Sequence record: PZ338878.1
Source: a phage
Length of the DNA stretch: 64,000 nt
Strand: one strand, 5' to 3'
The notes below the pieces were generated by a model. The model was not told where the DNA came from. It saw only the letters and a list, made by a program, of their open reading frames with translations, and ran no database searches. Shown in pieces: positions 5,193 to 59,581 of this stretch. A program made the translations under genes and the position numbers. How positions within the stretch are numbered: the stretch's first letter is position 1; each line of letters opens with the position of its first letter.

Positions 5193-5828
5193 ATGGGAAT
5201 ACCATTTGATTTAAAACTTGATGGTTCTAACGATTTAGTAATGGTGGATGGTGATTTAACACTAACCACAACTAAAAGTGAAATTGCAGCACAGACGCTT
5301 GGAATAACACTTAGAACTTTCCGTGGAGAATGGTTCCTCAATTCTAATTTTGGGGTTCCATATCTGCAAGAGATTATTGGTGTTGCCAAGAAGAAAGAGA
5401 TTGTTGATCGCATTTTCTTATCAACTATCGCAAGTAATGTTTATATAGATAATATCAATTCCTATACATCCTCTTATGATAGAGATGATAGGTATTACTC
5501 AATGAACGTTACTGTTACAGTTGGTGAACAAGTTGTTAGTGCTCTATTCAGTACACAGCCGTCTGAAGAATATATCTATCCAGAAGCTGGTGATGATAAT
5601 GCAGCAATCACTTGTGAAGCATTTGAAATTGTTGAATCTGCAAATAGACTCTATCGCTTTATTAACATTGTTGGTCTTCCTAAAGATACTTATTCTACTT
5701 GGTGGAATGAGTGGTCTAACGAGGCATTGCTTGAAAAATACCTTGTTAACGAAGCCAATAAAGGTCTTGCAACCAATTACAATTATGCTATAACAGCAAC
5801 AATGGGAGCTACAAATAATAATGGCTGA
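5193..5828 (+). CDS. baseplate wedge protein (gp25/GPW-like)
   Basis: N-terminal region (MGIPFDLKLDGSNDLVMVDGDLTLTTT..., GEWFLNSNFGVPYLQEIIG) resembles GPW/gp25 family; gene order. Confidence 0.55.
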   Translation: MGIPFDLKLDGSNDLVMVDGDLTLTTTKSEIAAQTLGITLRTFRGEWFLNSNFGVPYLQEIIGVAKKKEIVDRIFLSTIASNVYIDNINSYTSSYDRDDRYYSMNVTVTVGEQVVSALFSTQPSEEYIYPEAGDDNAAITCEAFEIVESANRLYRFINIVGLPKDTYSTWWNEWSNEALLEKYLVNEANKGLATNYNYAITATMGATNNNG

Positions 5829-6294
5829 TTTAACTACAATCAAGGTGTCTGATCTACCTGTAACAACATCTGTTTCAGACACAGATTATTTTGTAACAGA
5901 TCAATCAGGCATCACTAAGAAAACATCATTACGTGTTCTTCTTGCGGGTGCTGGTGTTACACGAAATCGTCTTTCTGCAAGGGGTACTGTTACAAATACC
6001 CTAGCTTTAGATATTAGCACGGCAGAGTATTTCTCTGCCACTTTATCTAGTCCAACTTGCAGTATTTCATTTAGTAATGTTCCAGTTACAACTAACATTG
6101 TTCAAAACTTTACTCTATCCCTACGTCAAGGCAGTGGAGCAAATAAAGTAACGTGGCCTCAATCTGTTAAATGGAGTTTTGGTCGCGCTCCTGTTTTGAG
6201 TTATAAACAGGGAGCTACAGATATTTTTGAATTTGTTAGTTATGATAATGGAGCTACCTGGATAGGTAGTTTAGTGATGGCAGGAGTGATTTAA
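5821..6294 (+). CDS. fibre-like structural protein
   Basis: N-terminus (SDLPVTTSVSDTDYFVTDQSGITKKTSL) shares the motif seen at the N-terminus of the 11347 tailspike (TNLPETSKVNGSDYLVLDQPDKTVKSTVSNFL). Confidence 0.45.
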   Translation: MADLTTIKVSDLPVTTSVSDTDYFVTDQSGITKKTSLRVLLAGAGVTRNRLSARGTVTNTLALDISTAEYFSATLSSPTCSISFSNVPVTTNIVQNFTLSLRQGSGANKVTWPQSVKWSFGRAPVLSYKQGATDIFEFVSYDNGATWIGSLVMAGVI

Positions 6295-44760: not shown

Positions 44761-45738
44761 TTAAGCAACAGACTGGTCTTCTTTTTCAGGGAAGATTAAA
44801 CTTGCAATAACACCCAGCCCCAGAGTACCTAACACAATATACATACTGATCGTCGGATCAATGTGTGCTGGCAGGAAACTCACTTTTGCGTGCAGAGTTT
44901 CTGCAAACGGGTGATACATCAGTTTTACACCCACAAATACCAGGACTACGATAACTGCTTTCTCCAGATGAACCAAATATTTCAGTGCAACACTAAGGAC
45001 AAAGAACAGAGCACGCAGACCTAAAATTGCACACAGCATTGAAGAAAATACAAGCAGAGGTTCTTGTGTCACTGCAATTACTGCTGGAACAGAGTCTACT
45101 GCAAAAATTACGTCAACCATTTCCATTACAAATACACAAACCAATGCAGGAGTTGCTACACGAACACCATTTTTGATTGTGAAGAACTTCTCACCATCCA
45201 TCTGATCAGATACAGGGAACAGCTTACGAACAATGCGAGTAGCCCAGTGCTTAGAGTAATCAACTTCTGCGTCATTATCTCCAGCAAATACCATTTTAGC
45301 TGCACAGAAAAGGATGACCGCACCGAAGAAGATATTAACATACCAACCCAAACTCAACAAGTAAGTGCCTACTGCTACAAACACACCTCGGAAGACAATC
45401 GCACCTGCAATACCCCAAAGTAGAATCTTGTGTTGCAAGTGTGTGCTTTTAATACCAAAACTTGCGAATACTGCCACAAATACTACTAAGTTATCTACAG
45501 AAAGAGATTTCTCCAACACATACCCACTCAAAAACAAGCTCGCAAAATCAGCACCGTGTTGGAAGTATACAAAACCATAGTAGGCTAACGATACCCCAAT
45601 CCAGAAAATTGACCAGCCAATTGCAGATTTAAATGAAATTTCTTTGTTTTCTCTGTGTCCAAAGAAATCAATACAAATCGACAAGACTAAAATACCCACT
45701 AAAACAACCACATCAATAATTGGGAAACCCAGTTGCAT
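44761..45738 (-). CDS. terC: TerC-family integral membrane protein
   Basis: 325 aa with multiple TM helices and the TerC-type LEKSLSVDNLVVF motif. Confidence 0.8.
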   Translation of the reverse strand: MQLGFPIIDVVVLVGILVLSICIDFFGHRENKEISFKSAIGWSIFWIGVSLAYYGFVYFQHGADFASLFLSGYVLEKSLSVDNLVVFVAVFASFGIKSTHLQHKILLWGIAGAIVFRGVFVAVGTYLLSLGWYVNIFFGAVILFCAAKMVFAGDNDAEVDYSKHWATRIVRKLFPVSDQMDGEKFFTIKNGVRVATPALVCVFVMEMVDVIFAVDSVPAVIAVTQEPLLVFSSMLCAILGLRALFFVLSVALKYLVHLEKAVIVVLVFVGVKLMYHPFAETLHAKVSFLPAHIDPTISMYIVLGTLGLGVIASLIFPEKEDQSVA

Positions 45739-46294: not shown

Positions 46295-47011
46295 TTATTT
46301 CAGTTTGTAAACAATTACATTTAAACCTTTGTTCACTAGAGTTTCTTCGATCATAAGTTTTACAATATTCCAAGAACCTCCAGCCAAACCACAACCAAGC
46401 ATTGGTAAACCTACAATTTTACCGCCTGAAGATACAACATCGTCTCCCATACTATCTAACGCATTGTAGATAGCTTCATAATTCAGGTCACGCTTACCTT
46501 CCTCACGACGACTATAACCATATTGTCCATATAAATTATAAATTGTCAAATTGTTTTCTGTATACTTAGTAAACGTACCTAATTTTTTATAATCACCACG
46601 TTTAGTGGCACAATCTGCTTTAAACGCACCAGGCCACTTGCTTTTAATTTTTGGTGCAATACCACTACCCATAGTGCAAAAACAGTTACAGCAGTGTGCT
46701 ATAGCGTCTATATCGCCTCTCTCTGCTGCTGCTAAAAGATCACCGTATACCTCAATGATACCTGGTGGATAACTTGTTACAATTTCATCTTCCCAGTACA
46801 TTTGCTCTACACCACCGATCAGTGCAAAGTTTTGTGTGATGCGATCATCAATATAATTAAGACCTGAAACATACACAGCATATTCATCCTGTGCTGTAAT
46901 GCCTTGTACACGAATTCTTAAGACACCATCTTTATCTGTTGCTACACGCCCAAAATCTTTTTCTGTAATATTGGTGATAGGATCTCCGAAAGTCGTCACT
47001 TTATTAGACAT
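46295..47011 (-). CDS. macro-domain protein (ADP-ribose binding/processing)
   Basis: ORF-track 46295-47077, start at internal ATG with AAAGGGGA RBS; GDIDAIAHCCNCFCTMGSGIAPKI and LPMLGCGLAGGSW resemble macro-domain motifs. Confidence 0.55.
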   Translation of the reverse strand: MSNKVTTFGDPITNITEKDFGRVATDKDGVLRIRVQGITAQDEYAVYVSGLNYIDDRITQNFALIGGVEQMYWEDEIVTSYPPGIIEVYGDLLAAAERGDIDAIAHCCNCFCTMGSGIAPKIKSKWPGAFKADCATKRGDYKKLGTFTKYTENNLTIYNLYGQYGYSRREEGKRDLNYEAIYNALDSMGDDVVSSGGKIVGLPMLGCGLAGGSWNIVKLMIEETLVNKGLNVIVYKLK

Positions 47012-47073
47012 AATAATCCCCTTTAACATTAGATTTGTTGATAATGTTGCTTTCAAAAAATTGACGCAGGAAA

Positions 47074-47862
47074 TCAAAGTTCTCTTTGTATTTTTTCAAT
47101 ATTATTGTAACCTTCTGCAAGGCAACCAAAGAACAGTTGTTCTACATAATACAAAGGAAGTTGTGAAAGTGCAATTTTAAAATCAACTTCGCTTTGACTC
47201 ATTAGATACTTAATAGGACGAACCAAACATTTAGCATCAGTTTCTTGCTTAATCATTTTAATAAAAGCTGCCAAGTTATTGATATAGTTGAAGTTAAGTG
47301 CAGCTTCGGTGTTGGCTTCTGTACCTTCATACTTTGCAAAGTACAGGAAAAACGTATCGTTTTCAACACCTTCTTTGTCTAAAATTTCAATAAGTTTTTC
47401 TTCGTGTGTTCCTGTAATATTAACATCATCAATGAAAATCAGAGTTTTATTACCCCAGAAATCACGATTGATAGAGAAAGTGTCACCATCGATCAAAGCC
47501 TTACGATCTTCTTTGCTAAGAAATCCATAATCATTGATATAACTCACTTTACGATGAACGATATCCCACTCTACTGCTTTACCTCCTTTGATAGAGATTA
47601 GGTAGTTGAGGTGATCTACAAAATGCTCAGATAACACTGTAGCTGCATTTTTCACATAGTTATATGGAGATGGAATAACAACAAAACTTTCATTTGCCAG
47701 TCGTTCTTCATACTTAGAAAAGAAACTTTCAGCCAAAATGCGCCCCATTCTTTTTGCTGCCTGGTTACTACCAAACTTTAGTTTGGAATAATCTGCAATA
47801 TTAAATTTTGCTTCCTTCAGGTTAGTAAAAGTATTAGCAAAATGTTGAATTTGATTACGCAT
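47074..47862 (-). CDS. phosphoribosyltransferase (PRTase)-like protein
   Basis: PRPP-binding-type motif KTLIFIDDVNITGTHEEK. Confidence 0.6.
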   Translation of the reverse strand: MRNQIQHFANTFTNLKEAKFNIADYSKLKFGSNQAAKRMGRILAESFFSKYEERLANESFVVIPSPYNYVKNAATVLSEHFVDHLNYLISIKGGKAVEWDIVHRKVSYINDYGFLSKEDRKALIDGDTFSINRDFWGNKTLIFIDDVNITGTHEEKLIEILDKEGVENDTFFLYFAKYEGTEANTEAALNFNYINNLAAFIKMIKQETDAKCLVRPIKYLMSQSEVDFKIALSQLPLYYVEQLFFGCLAEGYNNIEKIQREL

Positions 47863-48511
47863 TAATAAGTTCCTCTTTTTTAAGTTTAGCCAACAAGTCT
47901 TCTGGATTAATAATATGACAGAACTTCATCCCTATGTCAACAGCTTTTCCATCATAAATCAAACTATCTCCAACGTGTAAAATCTCCTCTGGTGCGAGAT
48001 CAAACGTTACCATTTCATCAAAAGAGAGTTTAAAAAACCTAGGATCTGGTTTACACAAGCAAAACTCATCAGAAAAATGCATAAAGTCAAATGGTAATTT
48101 TGTTAAGCCAGAATATACAGCTAAGAAACTACCTGGTACAAAATTAGTATTGCTCTTAATACTCAAAGAATAGATTGAACTCAGCTCTTCCAATTTCTTG
48201 CAAAGCTCAGGGTTCAATATTGGAGGATGTTTTATAAACATTGCTAAACAGTCTCTTTTTAACCCATCCACTTTATCAAGATCAATGTTCAAACGAGTAG
48301 AAAGTGTTTCCCAAGCATTCCTAGACGTTCCACAAATGCCTTTTTCTGCTTTTAAATCCAGGAGAGTTTTTACCTCTTTATATACGGTAGCTGCTTCTGC
48401 CTCAGAACAAGAGGCATACTCGGCAATAACCTTGTTGCGTTCTTCTGCATACAAAGGATTAGCAGTAATAAGAGTATTCCATACATCAAAAGAAATATGC
48501 TTAACAGTCAT
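47855..48511 (-). CDS. HAD-superfamily hydrolase-like protein
   Basis: ORF-track 47855-48529, start at ATG 48511 after GGAGG; motif I-like FDVWNTL, motif III K in CKPDPRFF, motif IV HVGDSLIYD. Confidence 0.5.
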   Translation of the reverse strand: MTVKHISFDVWNTLITANPLYAEERNKVIAEYASCSEAEAATVYKEVKTLLDLKAEKGICGTSRNAWETLSTRLNIDLDKVDGLKRDCLAMFIKHPPILNPELCKKLEELSSIYSLSIKSNTNFVPGSFLAVYSGLTKLPFDFMHFSDEFCLCKPDPRFFKLSFDEMVTFDLAPEEILHVGDSLIYDGKAVDIGMKFCHIINPEDLLAKLKKEELINA

Positions 48512-50099: not shown

Positions 50100-50570
50100 T
50101 TAGTCAGATTCCCAAATGTTGTCTTTCTTAACCCACATTCGTTGATTATCTGAACCTCTATAACGTTTCGTTGTTGGTTGATTCATATCATACTTACCAT
50201 CTATCACTATGTCAACCAGTTTTTTAATTTTTTCTGGAATTTCTTCAAAAAGATATCCTGTATATAAGACAATATCTTTTTTGTTTCCAAAACAATCTCT
50301 TACCTTCTCAAGAACATACTCTACAGTGTCAATGTTCTCTTTGTCAAGAGGTTCACCACCTAAAACTGTTAATCCTTTAATGAAAGGTCGAGATAAATCT
50401 TCCAAGATAAGATCTAATGTTTCAACAGTGAACTCTTGTCCGTAATTATACGACCAGGCTTTCTGGTTAAAGCAGCCACGGCAACCGTGGCTACAACCGC
50501 TCACCCACAAAGAGCATCTTACACCGTCACCGTTGAGCATGTCAACAGGTTCATATCCGGCGTAATTCAA
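50100..50570 (-). CDS. nrdG: anaerobic ribonucleotide reductase activating protein
   Basis: Radical-SAM cysteine cluster CSLWVSGCSHGCRGCFN; overlaps nrdD stop. Confidence 0.8.
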   Translation of the reverse strand: MNYAGYEPVDMLNGDGVRCSLWVSGCSHGCRGCFNQKAWSYNYGQEFTVETLDLILEDLSRPFIKGLTVLGGEPLDKENIDTVEYVLEKVRDCFGNKKDIVLYTGYLFEEIPEKIKKLVDIVIDGKYDMNQPTTKRYRGSDNQRMWVKKDNIWESD

Positions 50571-52366
50571 AAATGTTTCTCCCTTTCTAGTACCTCTTGC
50601 ATTTTACCTTTGTTATAAGGGCGAGAGTTAGGGGCAGAAAGGTATCCTGACACTCTTCTGATCACAGATATGGATTCTTCTTCATGATTACCGCAACTTG
50701 GACACTCGAAGCCTTTAGCCGTTGCTTTAAATTCACCATGAAAACCACATTTGAAACACTGATCTACAGGTTGGTTCACGCCAAAATAAGGAATTTTATT
50801 GTAGGCATAATCTACAAGAGTTTCCAGTGCTTGCAAGTTATTTTTAAGGTTTGGTGTTTCTACATAACCTATGTTCCCACCATTACTAATTTGTGCAAAA
50901 CCTTCCTCATAATCCCATTTTTGGAACGGGGTAGTGTGCATCCATACAGGTTGATGGAAAGAGTTTGTCAAGTAGTCACGATCAATAGAACCAGGATAGC
51001 GATCATTTAATGCTTTGGCAAATTTATAGCACAAGGATTCTGCTGGTGTTCCATACAAACTAAAAGCTAAACCAGAACGTTCTTTAAATGTGCAACAGAT
51101 ATCCTTCATATATTGAAGGATGTTTTTACCCATTGCTTTTGGATTGGTGTTATTTGGGTATAAAATCTCCATAGCTTCTGCTAAACCTACATAACCGATA
51201 CTAATAGAGGCATAGCCACCTTCAAATAGTTTACCAATCTCTTCATTAGCTTCTAATCGAGCTAAAGCCCCTTCCATAAACAATGTAGGGTTTTGAGATG
51301 CTTTGGTATGTCTAATACGGTTAACACGTAGCATATGTGCCTTATACGCCATCTCCATATGTTGTTCCAACAGTTCAGTAAATAAGATGCCCTTTTCACG
51401 GGACTCTGCTGCAATGATAGGTAAGTTTAAAGAAACTACGCCTAAGTTGAAACGACCATCATATTTTTCACCTTGCTCTGTTGCATAGTATGACAAGAAA
51501 CTACGGCAACCCATGCTTGTGACGCGACCATCTGAAGATCCTGTAACTTCTTTGTTTAAAGGTACAGAGATAAAATCAGGATAAATGCGTTCAGCACAAC
51601 ACTCCATTGCCAGTTGCTTCAAATCATAGTTTGGATCACCAGCTTTCATGTTAACACCATCTTCCAAGAAGAAGATAACTTTAGGAAACACAGGAGTTAC
51701 CCTATCTTTTCCTAATCCTTGTTTGTGCACCATTAGGTAGTTTTTAGTGATCATTCTACCAAAAGCAGAGGTATCCAAACCTAAACTAATTGTTATAAAA
51801 GGTGACTGACCATTTACACTCATTAGGGTGTTCACCTGGTAGATTAAAGTTTGCATTGCATCATAGACCTGTTTATCTACCATACGCATAGCAATATCAT
51901 AATCGCCAACATCGGCATATATTTTATTAAAACTTGCTTTAACGTATTGACTAAGCCCAGTATCAATATGTGCACAAGTTTGTCCACCATATTGGCTAGA
52001 AGCTACTGCTTGAATAATTTGAGTTAGAACAGTAGTTGCTACACCGATAGATTTTGGTTTTTCAATATGTGCATTACCAATACGGAAACCGTTCTCAAGC
52101 ATATCTTGGTAATTTACCAGGCAACAATTAGTTAAAGGTGAGAGTAAATAATCTAAATCGTGAATGTGACCATACCCGCTTTTATGCCATTCTGCTAGAT
52201 CTTCCGGTAAAATATGGGTCATTGCCATGTGCTTGCTCAGGATACCTGCTAGTAAGTCTCGGTGAGTATTAACAATCATTGCAGGTTTGTTTGCATTTTC
52301 ACGAGTAAATTCTTCGGATGTTTGTTCGAGGAATCCGATTACATCCTCATATAGTTTTTGGGTCAT
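50567..52366 (-). CDS. nrdD: anaerobic ribonucleoside-triphosphate reductase
   Basis: ORF-track 50567-52396, start at ATG 52366 after GGAGG; C-terminal Zn ribbon CFKCGF...CPSCGN and glycyl-radical-type RVSGYL. Confidence 0.85.
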   Translation of the reverse strand: MTQKLYEDVIGFLEQTSEEFTRENANKPAMIVNTHRDLLAGILSKHMAMTHILPEDLAEWHKSGYGHIHDLDYLLSPLTNCCLVNYQDMLENGFRIGNAHIEKPKSIGVATTVLTQIIQAVASSQYGGQTCAHIDTGLSQYVKASFNKIYADVGDYDIAMRMVDKQVYDAMQTLIYQVNTLMSVNGQSPFITISLGLDTSAFGRMITKNYLMVHKQGLGKDRVTPVFPKVIFFLEDGVNMKAGDPNYDLKQLAMECCAERIYPDFISVPLNKEVTGSSDGRVTSMGCRSFLSYYATEQGEKYDGRFNLGVVSLNLPIIAAESREKGILFTELLEQHMEMAYKAHMLRVNRIRHTKASQNPTLFMEGALARLEANEEIGKLFEGGYASISIGYVGLAEAMEILYPNNTNPKAMGKNILQYMKDICCTFKERSGLAFSLYGTPAESLCYKFAKALNDRYPGSIDRDYLTNSFHQPVWMHTTPFQKWDYEEGFAQISNGGNIGYVETPNLKNNLQALETLVDYAYNKIPYFGVNQPVDQCFKCGFHGEFKATAKGFECPSCGNHEEESISVIRRVSGYLSAPNSRPYNKGKMQEVLEREKHF

Positions 52367-52379
52367 TAATCCTCCGTGG

Positions 52380-52410
52380 AAAATAAAAGCCAGCATTAAG
52401 CTGGCTTTAG
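52380..52410 (-). terminator. terminator-like hairpin upstream of nrdD
   Basis: GCCAGC-ATTAA-GCTGGC stem-loop with flanking A/T tracts, between the 52456 gene and nrdD. Confidence 0.5.
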
Positions 52411-54701: not shown

Positions 54702-57476
54702 TTAGTTTACCAGTTTATTTATGTCTGGTAAAAGATTTATTTCACCTAAAAAATCACCTTCACCTTCCTCTAGCCAACTCTCATATGCTTGTGCATGATT
54801 ATAGTTACCATCAAAAGAATCTGCAACAAATTTTTCTACAGTTTTTCGAGATGTGCCAGCGCCAAATACACCAAGTTTAATACCATTGATCGGTAAAGTA
54901 GGGCTTGTTGGTACTTTCTCTGTTGCAACACGGTTGATATCTATAATCTCTTGTACAGTTGTATTCCATTGTAAGCATTTAACACAACGGGTATGCGCTA
55001 CATACAGTAAGTTTCGCTCTGCCTCTTCTAGTCCTACCCATTCACCAGTCTTTTTATCATAGTTGGAAGGAAAATCATTAGCAACAATAACCTGATCCCA
55101 CTCCAAACCTTTAGACTTATGTGCTGTAGTCAGTGTGACTTTTGCTGTAGGAGAATTTCTATGCGTTCTAAGTGTATGTGCTATAGTGTTTGCCTTGCCA
55201 GAAACTACGATGTTTAACAAGCGTTTAGCATCTGGATCAGCCTCTGCACACTCAACAAATTCATTCCAGTCTGCGTAAGGTAATACAGTTTCATGTTTTA
55301 CTTTCTCAATATCCCCTCTCCGAAGAGCATTAACACTATCCACCATAGAGATAAAATCCCTGGTATCTACGTTAATAATAATTTCTTCCCCATCTGCAAT
55401 ACGATCCATTGCCTCCATAAGCAAGGTTAAATTCTTGCGAAAGATGATAGTGTAAGGTTTTGTATAGTCTACAACATCTGATTTGTAGCTACCTACTACA
55501 GTATCAAAGCCTTTACCAACCAAAGGATGACGCAAAGGTTCTTTATCACTTAAAATCATATTCGCAATGTTTGCCACTTTGGGGCCAAAACGGAAGCAAG
55601 CAGTTAATGGAAGCTCTGCCCCATACTTAGCTGTTTCAATCATCATATTAGAGCTACCTCTAAATTGATAAATGCAGTTGTGGCTAAGAATTTCATTGCC
55701 AAAAAAGTTAGCAGTATCTTCTACTTCAATATCATAATAGATACCCTCACTATCTACAATGTCCACAATCTCTTCTGCCGTTACAGTATCACCATCTTTT
55801 ACTAACACAGACATGCCTTTAAACAAACCCGCTGCCGGAATTAAATTATATTTGGGAGTGTTCACAGAGGACATGCATTCTTTTAAAGATGCAAACGGAA
55901 CTATTTCAAGGATCTTTTGTGCAAAACTCAATGCTTCACGATAAGAATTGAAATATTTACGTACACGGTAACGACCTTCCAATTTAGCAACACTTACGCT
56001 TACACCTGCTTCAATGAGTGAGGCATAGATTGGCATTTCACTTTCTGTCCACTCAAAGCTAACTTGTGTTCCTTTACAACCTTGTGCTCGCAAAGTCACT
56101 GTTAACATTTTTCTTGCATCTACTGCACAATTGATGCTGTGCCAATGTGGATAAGCAAAATGATAGTCTTTATCCTCTAAAAGTTTAAAACCATTTTGTC
56201 CGAATTGTTCAAAGATATTGTTGATCCTTTCTTGATTAATACCGCGTGAACTTGCTTCAAATACACAAGTAGGAATGCCATATTGTAAACTGTATGCCAT
56301 TTCTTTTTCCATAGCAGCTTCACGGTTTTCAACAATATCCAACACCCACAACTTCTGTGCTTTTTCAGAACGTGTACGTTGCCCCAGTTTAGAAAAACCT
56401 TCTTTATCATCGAATTTGTTAGTGATCCCTACTCGGAAACCTAAATCTTTTCTCCACATTAGGTATACCACCATCTGATCATCTTTCAGAACATAAGGTG
56501 AAGCCCAAATACGATGGTTATGTGTCATATCTAAAGTCTTACCTTTAGCAGTAATAATATTCCTACCTTTTGTACGTGTAGATAAAGTCTTATTTGTTAC
56601 TTTTCTAAATGTAACTTTACCGTTAGAATAAGACTCTACCTTATCACCGATTTGCAGGTCTTTCATTGTAACCTGACCATTTTCGGTATTAAGTACCGTG
56701 TTTTCTGACACACATTGGAATTCATCACCAACTACCACAATTTGTTTGGCAGATTTAGCATTCCGCAGAATAGACAAGAATGCAGGGTTAACATCCTGGA
56801 ATTCATCCCCAAAAATAATGTCATAACCAAGATCAGCACCAGACAATTCAAACAATTTTACATAGGTGTCATGCGTCATCAAAGTATCTGTGTTAGGATC
56901 AATGCGCTCTCGCCACAATTGTTTTGCATACTTAACTACTTCTGTAATTAGTTTGTGTTCGTTAATACCTTTTCTTTTAATATCTGCAAGATGTACACCA
57001 GGAAAATGTTTACGGCTGATAAAAGGATCATCCGAAAATTCAAACTTACCTACGGTTTGCTTGATCATTAAACCAATCATAGCACGAGTTAAAAGTGTTT
57101 TCCCTCGTTTATCAATAAGATTATTAATCTTAAATTTCTTTGCTATCTCACTACCTGTACCTGCAACGTTAACATACTGTCCTTCTGGTCGTGACAGTTT
57201 TGCACGTAAACGATGATCCAGGAATTGATAGCAAATGGAATGCAATGTACGGCATTCTACATTTGGTGGCATCTTACGCCGTGCTTCTTCTGCCATGCTT
57301 TTATTGAAAGCTAAGTAAAGAATGCGATCTTCTGTACTGTTAGCCAGCAAATAAAGTGTTGACGTTTTTCCTGATCCAGATTTAGCTTGGATAGTTAAAA
57401 ACCGATGATCTGGAAAAGCCTCCTTAATAGCTGTTTGCTCTTCTGTTGGAGTAAAACTCAACTCTTTCTTAGCCAT
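54702..57476 (-). CDS. UvrD/Rep-like superfamily I DNA helicase containing an intein
   Basis: ORF-track 54702-57515, start at ATG 57476; Walker A AKSGSGKTST, motif II GDEFQD, motif III split by insertion (VVVGDEFQ | intein | CIYQFRGSS). Confidence 0.75.
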   Translation of the reverse strand: MAKKELSFTPTEEQTAIKEAFPDHRFLTIQAKSGSGKTSTLYLLANSTEDRILYLAFNKSMAEEARRKMPPNVECRTLHSICYQFLDHRLRAKLSRPEGQYVNVAGTGSEIAKKFKINNLIDKRGKTLLTRAMIGLMIKQTVGKFEFSDDPFISRKHFPGVHLADIKRKGINEHKLITEVVKYAKQLWRERIDPNTDTLMTHDTYVKLFELSGADLGYDIIFGDEFQDVNPAFLSILRNAKSAKQIVVVGDEFQCVSENTVLNTENGQVTMKDLQIGDKVESYSNGKVTFRKVTNKTLSTRTKGRNIITAKGKTLDMTHNHRIWASPYVLKDDQMVVYLMWRKDLGFRVGITNKFDDKEGFSKLGQRTRSEKAQKLWVLDIVENREAAMEKEMAYSLQYGIPTCVFEASSRGINQERINNIFEQFGQNGFKLLEDKDYHFAYPHWHSINCAVDARKMLTVTLRAQGCKGTQVSFEWTESEMPIYASLIEAGVSVSVAKLEGRYRVRKYFNSYREALSFAQKILEIVPFASLKECMSSVNTPKYNLIPAAGLFKGMSVLVKDGDTVTAEEIVDIVDSEGIYYDIEVEDTANFFGNEILSHNCIYQFRGSSNMMIETAKYGAELPLTACFRFGPKVANIANMILSDKEPLRHPLVGKGFDTVVGSYKSDVVDYTKPYTIIFRKNLTLLMEAMDRIADGEEIIINVDTRDFISMVDSVNALRRGDIEKVKHETVLPYADWNEFVECAEADPDAKRLLNIVVSGKANTIAHTLRTHRNSPTAKVTLTTAHKSKGLEWDQVIVANDFPSNYDKKTGEWVGLEEAERNLLYVAHTRCVKCLQWNTTVQEIIDINRVATEKVPTSPTLPINGIKLGVFGAGTSRKTVEKFVADSFDGNYNHAQAYESWLEEGEGDFLGEINLLPDINKLVN
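55677..56714 (-). mobile_element. intein (about 346 aa) inserted in helicase motif III
   Basis: Begins with Cys after DEFQ (CVSENTVLNTENGQVTMKDLQIGDKV), ends ...FGNEILSHN followed by +1 Cys; codons checked at both junctions. Confidence 0.65.
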
Positions 57477-57477
57477 T

Positions 57478-57954
57478 TCAACCTCTCTTAATTTGTTTAA
57501 CAAGCATAGGAACAAAATCTCGTTTTAAAATTTGTTCAATAATATGATCAGGTAGCTGTTGGAAATTATAATTAAATGCTACTGTCTCACCTTTAGGTGT
57601 TTCTACCCGCACATATAGCATGTTACGAAGTTTATCCACTTGTGCTGTATATTCTAAACCACGTAATTGATGCATTGCAAACATCAAATCATCAGTTTCA
57701 GTTTGGAATCTATCCCTTGTTTGCATCAAGGATAAGGCAAAAGGTAGATTTTCCCTAAGAGCCACCTTCTTAGGCACTAATGAAGGGAAATACTCCCCAA
57801 TAACTTCCTGTGTAAGCTGAATACACTCTTTTTCAAGCTGGTTTTGTTCCTTGAGTTCACAAACACTTTTTTGTAAAGTGTTAACCTCTTTTTGCAAAGC
57901 TGCTAGTTGAGTATTTAACTTTCTTTTTTGATTACGACCAAAACGTTTAGACAT
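57478..57954 (-). CDS. hypothetical coiled-coil protein
   Basis: 158 aa; basic N-terminus and coiled coil. Confidence 0.45.
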   Translation of the reverse strand: MSKRFGRNQKRKLNTQLAALQKEVNTLQKSVCELKEQNQLEKECIQLTQEVIGEYFPSLVPKKVALRENLPFALSLMQTRDRFQTETDDLMFAMHQLRGLEYTAQVDKLRNMLYVRVETPKGETVAFNYNFQQLPDHIIEQILKRDFVPMLVKQIKRG

Positions 57955-58499: not shown

Positions 58500-58940
58500 T
58501 TAAACGTTTTCTAAATCTTTTAAGGCATTACCCAACGTTAGAACAATAACATCGTTTGCTGCCTCTTCCCCATTGATATTGGTGAAATTTGGTGTGACAA
58601 AAGTAACCATATAAAACTCGTCCACCTGGAAGACAGCAATAACACCGTCCATCTTAACATCTTGACGAAAGGAAAAACCAATCATCTTCTCTTGCAAAGG
58701 CATATCCCCTTCCTTCATTACTGCCAGGGAGTTTTCAGGAATGTTATATTTATCTGCTCCGATGTAGATGTACGTAATGTTATCTTTATCGTGATGATAC
58801 AGGGTTGCTTTTTCCATATCTAAACCTGACAGATCAAATACGTTAATTTCTTGTGTAGTCTTCATAAATATCCTCCCAAATCCAATAATCATCTGTGTAA
58901 GTAGGATGCCTTTTATCCCACTCTGTTCTAGCCCAAGCAA
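58500..58940 (-). CDS. hypothetical protein
   Basis: ORF-track coordinates; true start probably an internal Met (MKTTQEIN...) after GGAGG. Confidence 0.4.
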   Translation of the reverse strand: MLGLEQSGIKGILLTQMIIGFGRIFMKTTQEINVFDLSGLDMEKATLYHHDKDNITYIYIGADKYNIPENSLAVMKEGDMPLQEKMIGFSFRQDVKMDGVIAVFQVDEFYMVTFVTPNFTNINGEEAANDVIVLTLGNALKDLENV

Positions 58941-59229
58941 CCGCTGCTACCAACACATCACCATGACAAGGTTGAGGTGAGCAGAAGCAAACTAAGTCTT
59001 TCCCTTCTAATTCTAACAAATCTTCAAGAGTGATTTTACCACAACGAATTTGTTCCCACAACCACTCTTTATATCTTTGTATAGTTGATCCTCGTGGTTC
59101 ATCATCCTTTAACTTAAAAGGATTTGCAAACTTTGAGGCTTTTAACCCCATATGAGGCATAGCTCTGCCAATGTACACTGCACCTTCAGGTATTACTTTA
59201 CCTAAATGGTAGAAATTTAATACTTTCAT
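58843..59229 (-). CDS. DUF4326-like protein
   Basis: ORF-track 58843-59253 trimmed to internal Met; GAVYIGRAMP...SKFANPF...GKDLVCFCSPQPCHGDVL recalled as DUF4326-type signature. Confidence 0.4.
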   Translation of the reverse strand: MKVLNFYHLGKVIPEGAVYIGRAMPHMGLKASKFANPFKLKDDEPRGSTIQRYKEWLWEQIRCGKITLEDLLELEGKDLVCFCSPQPCHGDVLVAAVAWARTEWDKRHPTYTDDYWIWEDIYEDYTRN

Positions 59230-59230
59230 A

Positions 59231-59581
59231 TTAACCCAAACACATCTGTGCAATCAAGCCCTGTATAAATTTATTAGCTTCTTTACTGTCGTAATCAGTT
59301 TCTTCTGGATATCCATCTTCATCGTACACAACTGTACCTTCAATATACCCTGCCTCAATTAAGGCACGGATCATATCAAATTGCCAGCATGAGTTACCAA
59401 ATGGACGTTTACCATTAAAACACTCTTCTTCTCTCCATAACGTAGAGAGTAGTTGTCGGAAATATTCCCGTACAGTGACAGTACCAAGATCTGAATCCTC
59501 AAACATAACATCCAGGGCATCAGGATTGCTTTTCTCTACATAAGGAATATATTTAACACCATTAATAGTTACATCAAGCAT
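59231..59581 (-). CDS. hypothetical protein
   Basis: 116 aa acidic ORF. Confidence 0.45.
   Translation of the reverse strand: MLDVTINGVKYIPYVEKSNPDALDVMFEDSDLGTVTVREYFRQLLSTLWREEECFNGKRPFGNSCWQFDMIRALIEAGYIEGTVVYDEDGYPEETDYDSKEANKFIQGLIAQMCLG

Follow-up and report, generated by a model that had tools for sequence, protein, structure and literature searches.

DUF4326 is a domain of phages that is also found in archaeal and giant viruses, and its tie to domains of the NAD/ADP-ribose type has been stated in the literature (PMC7824862, PMC9503650). Among the closest described systems are the fusions to NADAR or SLOG (YAcAr/YpsA) that Iyer et al. (2021, 2022) described in phages and giant viruses; they contain the same domain, with the same conserved residues and at up to 70% identity to the protein studied here. 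An anti-Avs SLOG protein likewise has giant-virus homologues with a C-terminal DUF4326 (bioRxiv 10.1101/2025.06.06.658234). The NrdA.1 protein of phage T4 is itself a member (Pfam PF14216, E 5.5e-22), and 'NrdA.1-like' proteins occur in T4-like, Vi01-like, KVP40-like and other phages. Our tblastn search of 50,697 phage records detected it in 1839 (about 3.6%), T4 among them, and most members of the family are stand-alone proteins of about 90 aa. The family is catalogued in Pfam, its contextual tie to NAD/ADP-ribose domains is published, and a role of DUF4326 in ADP-ribose or nucleotide chemistry has already been predicted by others.

The window analysed here, a stretch of 64,000 nucleotides, comes from a phi92-like Justusliebigvirus with 99% DNA identity to Escherichia phage JohannJBalmer/Bas62 and relatives. 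It contains, at 58843..59229 on the minus strand, a complete CDS running from an ATG to a TAA stop (58843-58845), whose 128-aa translation begins MKVLNFYHLGKVIPEGAVYIGRAMP and is a stand-alone DUF4326 protein. This is the orthologue of bas62_0084 of JohannJBalmer, it is 100% identical to the copy of Escherichia phage 92CQ, and identical or 99% identical copies of the gene are present in dozens of phage genomes in GenBank. A mechanical list of open reading frames also offers a TTG start at 59253, which gives a longer frame; since all homologues open with M-x-V-L-N, the true start is the ATG at 59229. The gene belongs to a tight same-strand array: a single nucleotide separates its ATG from the end of the upstream gene, and its last 23 nt are overlapped by the start of the downstream gene. 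Promoter and terminator scans around it performed no better than on shuffled sequence.

The product matches PF14216 at E 1.4e-21 (77.3 bits for a gathering cut-off of 25), residues 10-94 corresponding to model positions 5-81 of 82, and PHROG 464 at E 2.6e-42; both matches are far beyond chance. The Pfam envelope places the domain at 58948..59202 (minus strand), and the fold begins at residue 3. The entire family signature is present, namely YIGR, N-P-F, an arginine opening the first long helix, and L-x-G-K-D-L-V-C-x-C-x-P-x-x-C-H-G-D, and tblastn from this protein reaches nrdA.1 of RB7, Aeh1, Vi01 and KVP40. An earlier note on this DNA had proposed a DUF4326-like protein on account of a conserved pattern: its three strings, GAVYIGRAMP, SKFANPF and GKDLVCFCSPQPCHGDVL, are all found in the translation, and the Pfam search it recommended returned the family. 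We conclude that 58843..59229 is an intact, expressed-looking phage gene of the DUF4326 family, that of T4 NrdA.1. Profiles for Macro (PF01661) and NADAR (PF08719) gave no match to the protein with the E limit raised to 1, and neither ranked among the top families in a scan (E up to 10) of the 60 sequences of a homologue alignment, A1. The defence and counter-defence profiles of PADLOC and NCBIfam did not match it either.

GenBank and PHROG 24867 label such proteins 'NrdA-like'. The GenBank annotation 'NrdA-like ribonucleotide reductase', which is common in phage records, is a naming error that we trace to the T4 gene name nrdA.1, given to a separate small gene beside nrdA. A true NrdA was rejected as an identity for the window protein, which has 128 aa versus about 750 aa and DUF4326 as its sole Pfam match; the domains of the ribonucleotide reductase (RNR) large subunit (ATP-cone, all-alpha, barrel) were not found in it. 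The T4 protein itself (NP_049846.1, 108 aa) is a good point of comparison. Like the window protein, it is small, stands alone and is encoded in an early/nucleotide-metabolism region, and it keeps N5, R22, N36, R46, C81, C83, P85, C88, H89 and D91. However, the identity of about 39% concerns the C-terminal half only, and NrdA.1 lacks both the insertion at residues 23-31 and the acidic/aromatic tail of the window protein. In addition, T4 nrdA.1 is translationally coupled to nrdA, whereas the window gene is not.

To assess conservation we used 62 sequences, which represent 61 genome groups. Three residues, C81, C83 and H89, are conserved at 100%, C88 and P85 at 98%, and R22, N36 and R46 at 95%, a core that is typical of an active site. 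The Cys/His signature is invariant in alignments A1 and A3 as well. In the window protein it reads C81-F-C83-S-P85-Q-P-C88-H89-G-D91 (58957..58989, minus strand) and is the presumed active or metal site. Residues N5, R22, N36, R46, D78 and D91, all polar or charged and far apart in sequence, are likewise conserved across very diverse viruses and hosts. In alignment A1, the Cys loop of some close relatives is lengthened by a 4-residue insertion.

The AlphaFold2 model of the window protein has a pLDDT of 91.3 and a pTM of 0.80, and that of a compact 87-aa homologue a pLDDT of 96.8. Predicted elements are a strand at 3-5, a strand at about 17-19, a long loop with S32 and N36-P37-F38, a helix at 46-63 that opens with R46, a short helix at 68-72, a strand at 79-81, the Cys loop and a helix at 89-107. 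The third strand terminates on C81 and the last helix starts with H89, which places the Cys motif between the strand end and the opening turn of that helix. As modelled, DUF4326 folds into a compact alpha/beta domain about 90 residues long, whose strictly conserved core consists of R22, N36(-P-F), R46 and the C81-x-C83-x-P-x-x-C88-H89-G-D91 loop. The C-terminal acidic/aromatic tail (residues 108-128, ...DDYWIWEDIYEDYTRN; 58846..58908, minus strand) lies outside the Pfam domain and is modelled with low confidence, the last two 10-residue blocks having a pLDDT of 57-62; in alignment A1, its motif [HY]WxWE[DEG] is confined to close relatives.

Foldseek against BFVD returned 31 matches at E<1e-3, DUF4326 models aligning at TM 0.6-0.74. 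The named matches are DUF4326 proteins or multidomain proteins (DUF2493/SLOG, 'NADAR domain with protein tyrosine phosphatase'); roughly one in three is unnamed, and a few are named otherwise (transposase, alpha-L-fucosidase). Against the PDB, no significant match was obtained with the window model, nor with the 87-aa homologue, from which the insertion and the disordered tail are removed, and sequence searches of the PDB, with the single protein or a 60-sequence profile, gave chance matches only. Neither the nucleotide-binding fold envisaged in the earlier note nor any other known fold (phosphatase, rhodanese, macro and NADAR included) was therefore assigned, Foldseek against the PDB being empty for two models of pLDDT >91. 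A GIY-YIG-like fold was rejected as well, having neither Pfam nor Foldseek support; it had been considered because the 'VLN-x11-VYIGR' stretch followed by an Arg-opened helix resembles GIY-x10-YIG-R, and the beta-beta-alpha-alpha-beta-alpha order is alike.

Burroughs and Aravind reportedly proposed, in 2023, a RapZ-C/DUF488/DUF4326 clade within the rhodanese-phosphatase superfamily, and their abstract is said to predict DNA-end processing for some of its members. Part of our data is compatible with this placement: as in rhodanese-phosphatases, an invariant Cys of DUF4326 is predicted to lie at or just past the end of a strand, ahead of a loop and the N-terminus of a helix, and C83 and H89 keep the i/i+6 spacing of the C-x5-R motif. 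The DUF4326 loop, C-x-C-x4-C-H without Arg, thus has a predicted strand-loop-helix topology compatible with a Cys-phosphatase site, as judged from sequence positions in the model. DUF4326 nevertheless differs from Cys-phosphatases by a His in place of the P-loop Arg, by two extra invariant Cys and by a variable loop length. Foldseek against the PDB gave no significant structural match between the two DUF4326 models and solved rhodanese, PTP or RapZ structures; the MKP5 phosphatase appeared among the non-significant matches (E 2.6). With hhalign, alignment A1 scored a probability below 0.3% against both E. coli YeaO and RapZ, and a diverse DUF4326 profile one of 0.5% against a 95-sequence DUF488 profile, while hmmsearch in both directions between DUF4326 and DUF488 gave nothing; these DUF488 tests covered the YeaO-type subfamily only. 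One of 60 DUF4326 members had a weak match to Pfam PF22751 (DUF488-N3a, E 0.002). The published rhodanese-phosphatase assignment is thus not reproduced here.

What could such a domain do? Tentatively, we consider most likely a small Cys/His enzyme acting on the ribose-phosphate moiety that is handled by N-glycosidases of the NADAR and SLOG kinds. The Cys/His loop would provide a nucleophile/acid pair or hold a bound metal, two arginines and the asparagines would grip a phosphate-bearing ribose, and the enzyme would work downstream of these N-glycosidases or beside them. ADP-ribose, ribose-5-phosphate-type products and an ADP-ribose remnant on nucleic acid are candidate substrates, and the chemistry may be that of a phosphatase, a transferase or another enzyme. 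In the window phage, the protein may be a stand-alone helper of the NADAR and DarG-like macro enzymes that this phage encodes, or of nucleotide salvage; its expression would start from the long array of small, leftward-directed genes that lies upstream of those for the helicase and RNR. Besides the failed fold, DUF488 and RapZ searches described above and the mixed neighbourhoods and neutral T4 nrdA.1 screens described below, three points go against this proposal. The motif is C-x5-H, not C-x5-R, and takes a 4-residue insertion in some relatives, whereas a phosphate-binding loop would be expected to be fixed; within nine positions, four invariant Cys/His look as much like a metal site as like a nucleophile; and the window gene adjoins no NAD/ADP-ribose gene, the macro gene being 11.8 kb and NADAR about 8.2 kb away. 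A bolder version, that DUF4326 is a structurally novel Cys3-His enzyme completing or extending NADAR/SLOG N-glycosidase action, is suggested by two models of pLDDT >91 with no solved homologue, and appears rather unlikely; such an enzyme may represent, for example, a class processing ADP-ribose-phosphate or ribose-5-phosphate, or may undo a modification that some further defence system introduces into nucleic acids or nucleotides.

The same Cys/His cluster invites two other explanations. In one, DUF4326 would be a redox or metal accessory of deoxynucleotide synthesis, the Cys-x-Cys...Cys-His motif shuttling electrons or binding a metal or cluster for RNR or a neighbouring nucleotide enzyme. 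Besides the four invariant Cys/His within nine positions, several gene orders are in line with it: in the td-nrdA-nrdB block of T4, nrdA.1 and the start of nrdA share 10 nt; the gene of Asteriusvirus Ecwhy_1 lies exactly between nrdD and nrdG; NrdA is 2 kb away at locus L054 and a dCMP deaminase is nearby in KVP40; and in the window, NrdD and NrdG are encoded on the same strand, 6.4-8.3 kb downstream. However, an RNR gene is adjacent in just 3 of the 61 groups, recurrent fusions join DUF4326 to NADAR or SLOG and never to RNR subunits, no thioredoxin-like or ferredoxin-like match was found by Pfam or by Foldseek against the PDB, and in the T4 transposon data, insertions in nrdA and nrdB are depleted (in the control and the challenge of the DarTG1 experiment alike) but those in nrdA.1 are not. 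This depletion pattern indicates that nrdA.1 and nrdA/nrdB are not functionally interdependent, and we regard the accessory role as improbable.

In the other, DUF4326 would be a non-catalytic module, zinc-stabilised for example, whose ligand is a signalling nucleotide or a protein of the host or the phage, and which counters defence as a sponge or inhibitor. A Cys3-His pattern is typical of structural zinc sites, the protein is small and encoded among many small genes without assigned function, its tail in close relatives resembles an interaction peptide, and an Acb2/Tad1-like sponge gene is found near a prophage relative. Yet the conservation of N5, R22, N36, R46, D78 and D91 from archaeal to giant viruses argues for a conserved small substrate, not for a fast-evolving host target, and the domain has repeatedly been built into multi-enzyme polypeptides. 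We regard a purely binding role as distinctly improbable.

The earlier note held that the family occurs in NAD/ADP-ribose contexts, in agreement with the literature cited above and with our survey: in 10 of 61 genome groups, among close homologues, NADAR or SLOG is fused to DUF4326 or encoded in an adjacent or translationally coupled same-strand gene, while in the other 51 neither is fused or adjacent. One protein (P0140) is a NADAR-DUF4326 fusion whose DUF4326 part is 70% identical to the window protein; two others (P0130 and P0109) and the IMG/VR loci L062, L066/L081 and L068/L090 are fusions of DUF4326 and SLOG. A NADAR gene overlaps the start of DUF4326 by 4 nt at L047, and SLOG adjoins it on the same strand at L038 and L052. 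A giant protein (L084) has the order NADAR-AlkB-DUF4326-SF1 helicase. In contrast to these fusions, the window protein stands alone; the NADAR of its phage is a separate gene about 8.2 kb off, outside the 64-kb window, and a search for SLOG genes within 10 kb returned none.

Elsewhere the immediate neighbours are mixed. A Pfam census of the flanks leans towards replication, RNR/nucleotide metabolism or genes without assigned function (PolA, PolB, helicases, NrdA, NrdD, NrdG and RNA ligase are among those named), and all-against-all neighbour clustering revealed no conserved operon partner, no family recurring in more than 4 of 61 groups. The replication genes raise the question of whether DUF4326 is an enzyme of DNA or RNA repair or end processing within a replication module, removing for instance phosphate or sugar remnants, instead of a small-molecule ADP-ribose enzyme. 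Neighbours such as PolA (twice), PolB, SNF2/helicase, SSB, the gp46/47 nuclease, an SSAP-DNA polymerase pair and RNA ligase point to it, as does the position of the window gene just upstream of a UvrD-type helicase gene. The domain is also joined to helicases (L059, and L084 with its AlkB-like dioxygenase, NADAR and SF1 helicase), and is present in PHROG 30585, a 'DNA repair protein', and in an 851-aa BFVD protein; the DNA-end processing reportedly predicted for some members of the clade is a further point. Against this, Pfam and Foldseek against the PDB reveal no nucleic-acid-binding fold or motif, the family consists mostly of stand-alone proteins of about 90 aa without a DNA-binding extension, T4 nrdA.1 insertion mutants grow normally, and its SLOG partners belong mainly to the YAcAr/YpsA type, for which ligand sensing or nucleotide processing is predicted, not an action on DNA. 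A repair function is possible, if unlikely.

The earlier note had also seen, in a macro-domain protein 12 kb away, a hint that the phage invests in ADP-ribose/NAD chemistry. The protein exists: a DarG-like macro-domain gene (46295..47029, minus strand; Pfam Macro E 2.6e-7, PADLOC DarG E 1.1e-13) lies 11.8 kb from the DUF4326 gene, as context that is not physically linked to it. It is the last of a same-strand run in the order HAD hydrolase (47855-48511, Pfam HAD E 8e-6), PRTase_3 (47074-47862, Pfam PRTase_3 E 1.6e-38) and macro. The lineage does invest in ADP-ribose chemistry: this protein is DarG-like, and the lineage also encodes a NADAR (Pfam E 3e-36), which in Bas60/61/62 neutralises DarT1 and counters DarTG1 by experiment (PMC11257639). 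As drawn from the macro gene, the inference is weak, because about 25 other genes intervene, no macro gene is adjacent in any of the 61 groups (it lies 6-12 kb off in four), the neighbours are mostly replication or RNR genes or genes without assigned function, and T4 nrdA.1 shows no DarTG phenotype. The NAD-reconstitution pathways, NARP3 included, rely on other proteins and have no bearing on this gene.

A role for DUF4326 as an anti-DarTG factor, that is, as a third activity removing ADP-ribose from DNA beside NADAR and macro, was considered in view of these cohabitations. AdfN (NADAR) and AdfM/DarG-like macro proteins share its genomes (T4 and the Bas60-62 lineage) and its biological theme, and NADAR fusions exist; their fold and family are nevertheless unrelated to DUF4326. 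DNA adducts are targets of both NADAR and DarG-like macro domains, which is also in line with the repair function considered above, and the Bas60 NADAR, expressed ectopically, suffices alone against DarT1 (PMC11257639). The T4 transposon screens each yielded a single gene, 30.3/adfN with DarTG1 and tk.4/adfM with DarTG2, and nrdA.1 was not the significant one for DarTG2. Under DarTG1, nrdA.1 had a log2FC of -0.00 (p 0.99), and in one further challenge sheet a log2FC of 0.03 (adjusted p = 1). These existing data already speak against a part of DUF4326 in DarTG1/2 escape: for T4 nrdA.1 an anti-DarTG role is largely refuted, and for the family we regard it as very improbable. T4 nrdA.1 is also dispensable in K-12, with 29 of 31 insertion sites hit. 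The window gene itself is ordinary; the interest lies in the biochemistry of a widespread viral domain with a strict Cys/His site and no solved structural relative, which may have a place in the phage ADP-ribose arms race against DarT-, Thoeris- or Sir2-type defences. Two tractable orthologues, T4 nrdA.1 and Bas62_0084, lend themselves to experiments on it.

The gene at 58843..59229 on the minus strand is an ORF that opens with ATG, closes with TAA and encodes a protein of 128 amino acids (MKVLNFYHLGKVIPEGAVYIGRAMPHMGLKASKFANPFKLKDDEPRGSTIQRYKEWLWEQIRCGKITLEDLLELEGKDLVCFCSPQPCHGDVLVAAVAWARTEWDKRHPTYTDDYWIWEDIYEDYTRN). All the motifs quoted in the earlier note are found in this translation, and the domain it had named was correctly recognised: PF14216 (DUF4326) matches residues 10-94 in Pfam with an E-value of 1.4e-21 and 77.3 bits, for a curated cut-off of 25 bits. 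Among PHROGs, the protein matches 464 (unknown function; E 2.6e-42) and 24867 ('ribonucleotide reductase NrdA-like'; E 1.7e-28); NCBIfam and PADLOC profiles gave no match. Because every homologue opens with M-x-V-L-N, the start is placed at the ATG at 59229, and not at the upstream TTG. Genes of this same-strand array are tightly packed: 1 nt separates the end of the upstream gene from the ATG, and the last 23 nt are overlapped by the start of the next gene. It is a genuine gene, conserved and subject to selection. Residues 108-128 (58846-58908, minus strand) form an acidic and aromatic C-terminal tail, DDYWIWEDIYEDY, with a motif, [HY]WxWE[DEG], common only to close relatives of the window protein; predicted to be disordered, the tail could be a protein-interaction peptide.

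Relatives numbered 169 by word-indexed search and more than 7,000 by profile search, and tblastn found the family in 1839 of 50,697 GenBank phage records (~3.6%). Matches include nrdA.1 of T4-like, Vi01-like and KVP40-like phages. T4 NrdA.1 (108 amino acids) is a full DUF4326 domain (E 5.5e-22), and its gene (5672-5998 in the T4 locus, L097) shares 10 nt with the start of nrdA. The BME3 record names the protein 'DUF4326 domain-containing protein', while in those of PD06, PHB05, ECGD1, W22, SD2, 92CQ and VEcB the 128-residue protein is labelled 'NrdA-like ribonucleotide reductase' or 'ribonucleoside-diphosphate reductase 1 alpha subunit', as it is in PHROG 24867. Identity with a ribonucleotide reductase is ruled out, the window protein being devoid of any domain of this enzyme; since the family includes the T4 gene named nrdA.1, the label is a name-propagation error from that gene name. 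Gene and family, like the prediction drawn from context, were public before this analysis.

To measure conservation, 80 IMG/VR loci and the GenBank loci were sorted into 61 independent genome groups according to the genes they share, and one representative of each was retained. C81, C83 and H89 are conserved in 100% of the groups, C88, P85 and L79 in 98%, L74 in 97%, R22, N36 and R46 in 95%, G76 in 94%, and N5, Y19, G21, P37, F38, Y53, K77, D78 and D91 in 81 to 89%; all polar and Cys/His positions are kept in T4 NrdA.1. The earlier note had proposed structure prediction, with a nucleotide-binding fold in mind. The AlphaFold2 model of the window protein (60-sequence alignment) is indeed confident (pLDDT 91.3, pTM 0.80). 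Its first half is predicted to comprise a strand (3-5), a short strand (around 17-19), a long loop with N-P-F and a helix (46-63) opening with R46; its second half, a helix (68-72), a strand (79-81) ending with C81, the Cys loop and a helix (89-107) opening with H89, the tail 108-128 being modelled with low confidence. A compact homologue of 87 amino acids gave the same order of elements (pLDDT 96.8). The nucleotide-binding fold, in contrast, was not recovered: Foldseek comparison of both models with the PDB gave no significant match (best E-values 1.9 and 0.58, TM at most 0.31), and searching PDB sequences with the protein or with a DUF4326 profile gave nothing beyond chance hits. Against viral predicted structures, the window model matches DUF4326 proteins with TM up to 0.74, some matches being nameless in the tables; they include multidomain 'NADAR domain with protein tyrosine phosphatase' and DUF2493/SLOG proteins. 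The window protein is a domain of the DUF4326/NrdA.1 family with an active-site-like constellation; set beside these residues, a non-catalytic binding module is quite an unlikely reading. A domain carried by ~3.6% of phage records and by T4 thus has an invariant Cys3-His site and no solved structural relative, and this is where its remaining interest lies.

A RapZ-C/DUF488/DUF4326 clade was reportedly assigned to the rhodanese-phosphatase superfamily by Burroughs and Aravind in 2023. The predicted topology of DUF4326, with an invariant Cys at the end of a strand, then a loop and a helix, would be compatible with a Cys-phosphatase-like site, and C83 and H89 are spaced i/i+6, as in the C-x5-R motif. 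Unlike this motif, DUF4326 has a His in place of the Arg and two further invariant Cys, and in some close relatives its loop is longer by 4 inserted residues. Aligned by hhalign, the DUF4326 profile scored a probability under 0.3% with E. coli YeaO (DUF488) as with RapZ, and a diverse DUF4326 profile 0.5% with a 95-sequence DUF488 profile of the YeaO type; hmmsearch between DUF4326 and DUF488 returned nothing in either direction. The sole hint of kinship is one member out of 60 that matches Pfam 'DUF488-N3a' (E 0.002). Because Foldseek, hhalign and hmmsearch were negative and the motifs differ, we report this membership as a published claim, which our comparisons neither reproduced nor refuted.

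The family is repeatedly joined to NADAR and SLOG domains, also in close relatives; such fusions in phages and giant viruses had been described by Iyer et al. (2021, 2022). The homologue P0140 is a NADAR-DUF4326 protein with 70% identity to the window protein over DUF4326, two others (P0130 and P0109) are DUF4326-SLOG fusions, SLOG fusions occur in four more groups of IMG/VR loci, and a 2265-residue protein combines DUF4326 and YpsA-SLOG. Same-strand adjacent NADAR or SLOG genes are present in three further groups, in one of which the stop of NADAR and the start of DUF4326 share 4 nt. Altogether, fusion or direct adjacency concerns 10 of the 61 groups. No other partner recurs: after BLAST clustering, no neighbour family is present in more than four of the 61 groups. 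An anti-Avs SLOG protein also has homologues in giant viruses that carry a C-terminal DUF4326 (2025 preprint, bioRxiv 10.1101/2025.06.06.658234). No experimental study of a DUF4326 protein was found in the literature. The reading we tentatively favour is that of a small Cys/His-dependent enzyme, possibly metal-assisted, which would act on a phosphate-bearing ribose moiety tied to the N-glycosidase chemistry of NADAR and SLOG; its substrate could be either a small molecule or a group carried on nucleic acid. A direct role in nucleic-acid repair or end processing is a lesser possibility. A helicase with an inserted DUF4326 was found among the IMG/VR loci, and a 4182-residue ORF (L084, 257-12805 of a 156-kb IMG/VR contig), read beyond its first ~1900 residues, contains consecutively NADAR, an AlkB-like 2OG-Fe(II) dioxygenase, DUF4326 and an SF1 (AAA_30) helicase; from its domains, it looks like a multi-enzyme nucleic-acid de-modification protein. 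In a 1.2-Mb contig (GCA_902731075.1; L094, 11449-15673), NAD salvage genes (NMN-adenylyltransferase-like, NAPRTase, isochorismatase/nicotinamidase) lie 3-7 kb from the gene of a cellular or giant-virus homologue, P0091.

A second, less marked association is with ribonucleotide reductase and replication. A Pfam census of 117 flanking genes was heterogeneous, the majority having no match; it contained PolA and helicase twice each, PolB, NrdA, NrdD, NrdG, RNA ligase and RegA, and NADAR and SLOG once each. In T4, nrdA.1 adjoins nrdA; in the Asteriusvirus jumbo phage Ecwhy_1 (L010, 3953-4279) nrdD and nrdG directly flank the DUF4326 gene; in CP-T1 it lies between the genes of an annealing protein and DNA polymerase, and in Vi01 it adjoins gp46/47. 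Two lineages, Asteriusvirus and T4, thus place it next to two different reductase classes. That the protein assists dNTP synthesis as a redox or metal accessory, as such neighbours might suggest, seems unlikely to us.

Many phi92-like coliphages (Stephanstirmvirinae, Justusliebigvirus) share 99% identity with the region, among them Escherichia phage JohannJBalmer (Bas62), whose counterpart bas62_0084 is annotated 'hypothetical protein'; between 92CQ and the window the protein shows 100% identity. The gene belongs to an extended array of small, unknown genes pointing leftwards which, from the Bas62 annotation, begins near 63.5 kb in an intergenic region between divergent genes. The array runs into the gene of a UvrD/Rep-family helicase of 937 amino acids (54702-57515, minus strand), whose intein, also annotated in Bas62, is visible in translation as a Hint/homing-endonuclease-like insert. 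Then come an intact NrdD (609 amino acids, 50567-52396) and NrdG (50100-50570), and further downstream an AAA ATPase and a same-strand run (46295-48511, minus strand) of HAD hydrolase, PRTase_3 (ComF-like) and DarG-like macro-domain genes. Just downstream of this cluster lies a TerC-family integral membrane protein gene (44761-45738, minus strand; Pfam E 1.2e-38). In a close relative, a 149.5-kb IMG/VR genome with a 100% identical DUF4326 protein (L012, 16834-18953), nrdD is in two ORFs of 298 and 323 amino acids, which could reflect either a frameshift or an inserted intron or intein.

The macro-domain gene (46295-47029, minus strand) had been taken as a hint of ADP-ribose/NAD chemistry. Its distance, 11.8 kb, was right and the link is reasonable, but too much was read into it: a macro gene never adjoins DUF4326 in the 61 groups, and lies 6-12 kb away in only four. 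The macro domain is DarG-like (PADLOC DarG, E 1.1e-13) and probably the counterpart of T4 AdfM (Tk.4), which is needed against DarTG2 (HIDEN-SEQ preprint). On the opposite side, ~8.2 kb from DUF4326 and just past the window end, lies the NADAR gene bas62_0106 (Pfam E 3e-36). Johannesman et al. (PMC11257639) showed that NADAR of Bas60/61/62 neutralises DarT1 and lets DarTG1-sensitive phages plate again. The lineage therefore carries NADAR, macro and DUF4326, like T4. In T4 transposon data, nrdA.1 is non-essential (insertions at 29 of 31 sites) and neutral under DarTG1 (30 sites, log2FC -0.00, p 0.99), and the one significant gene under DarTG2 is not nrdA.1. In T4, escape from DarTG therefore does not depend on DUF4326, so that any role would be auxiliary, redundant or directed at something else, and an anti-DarTG enzyme in its own right is highly improbable.
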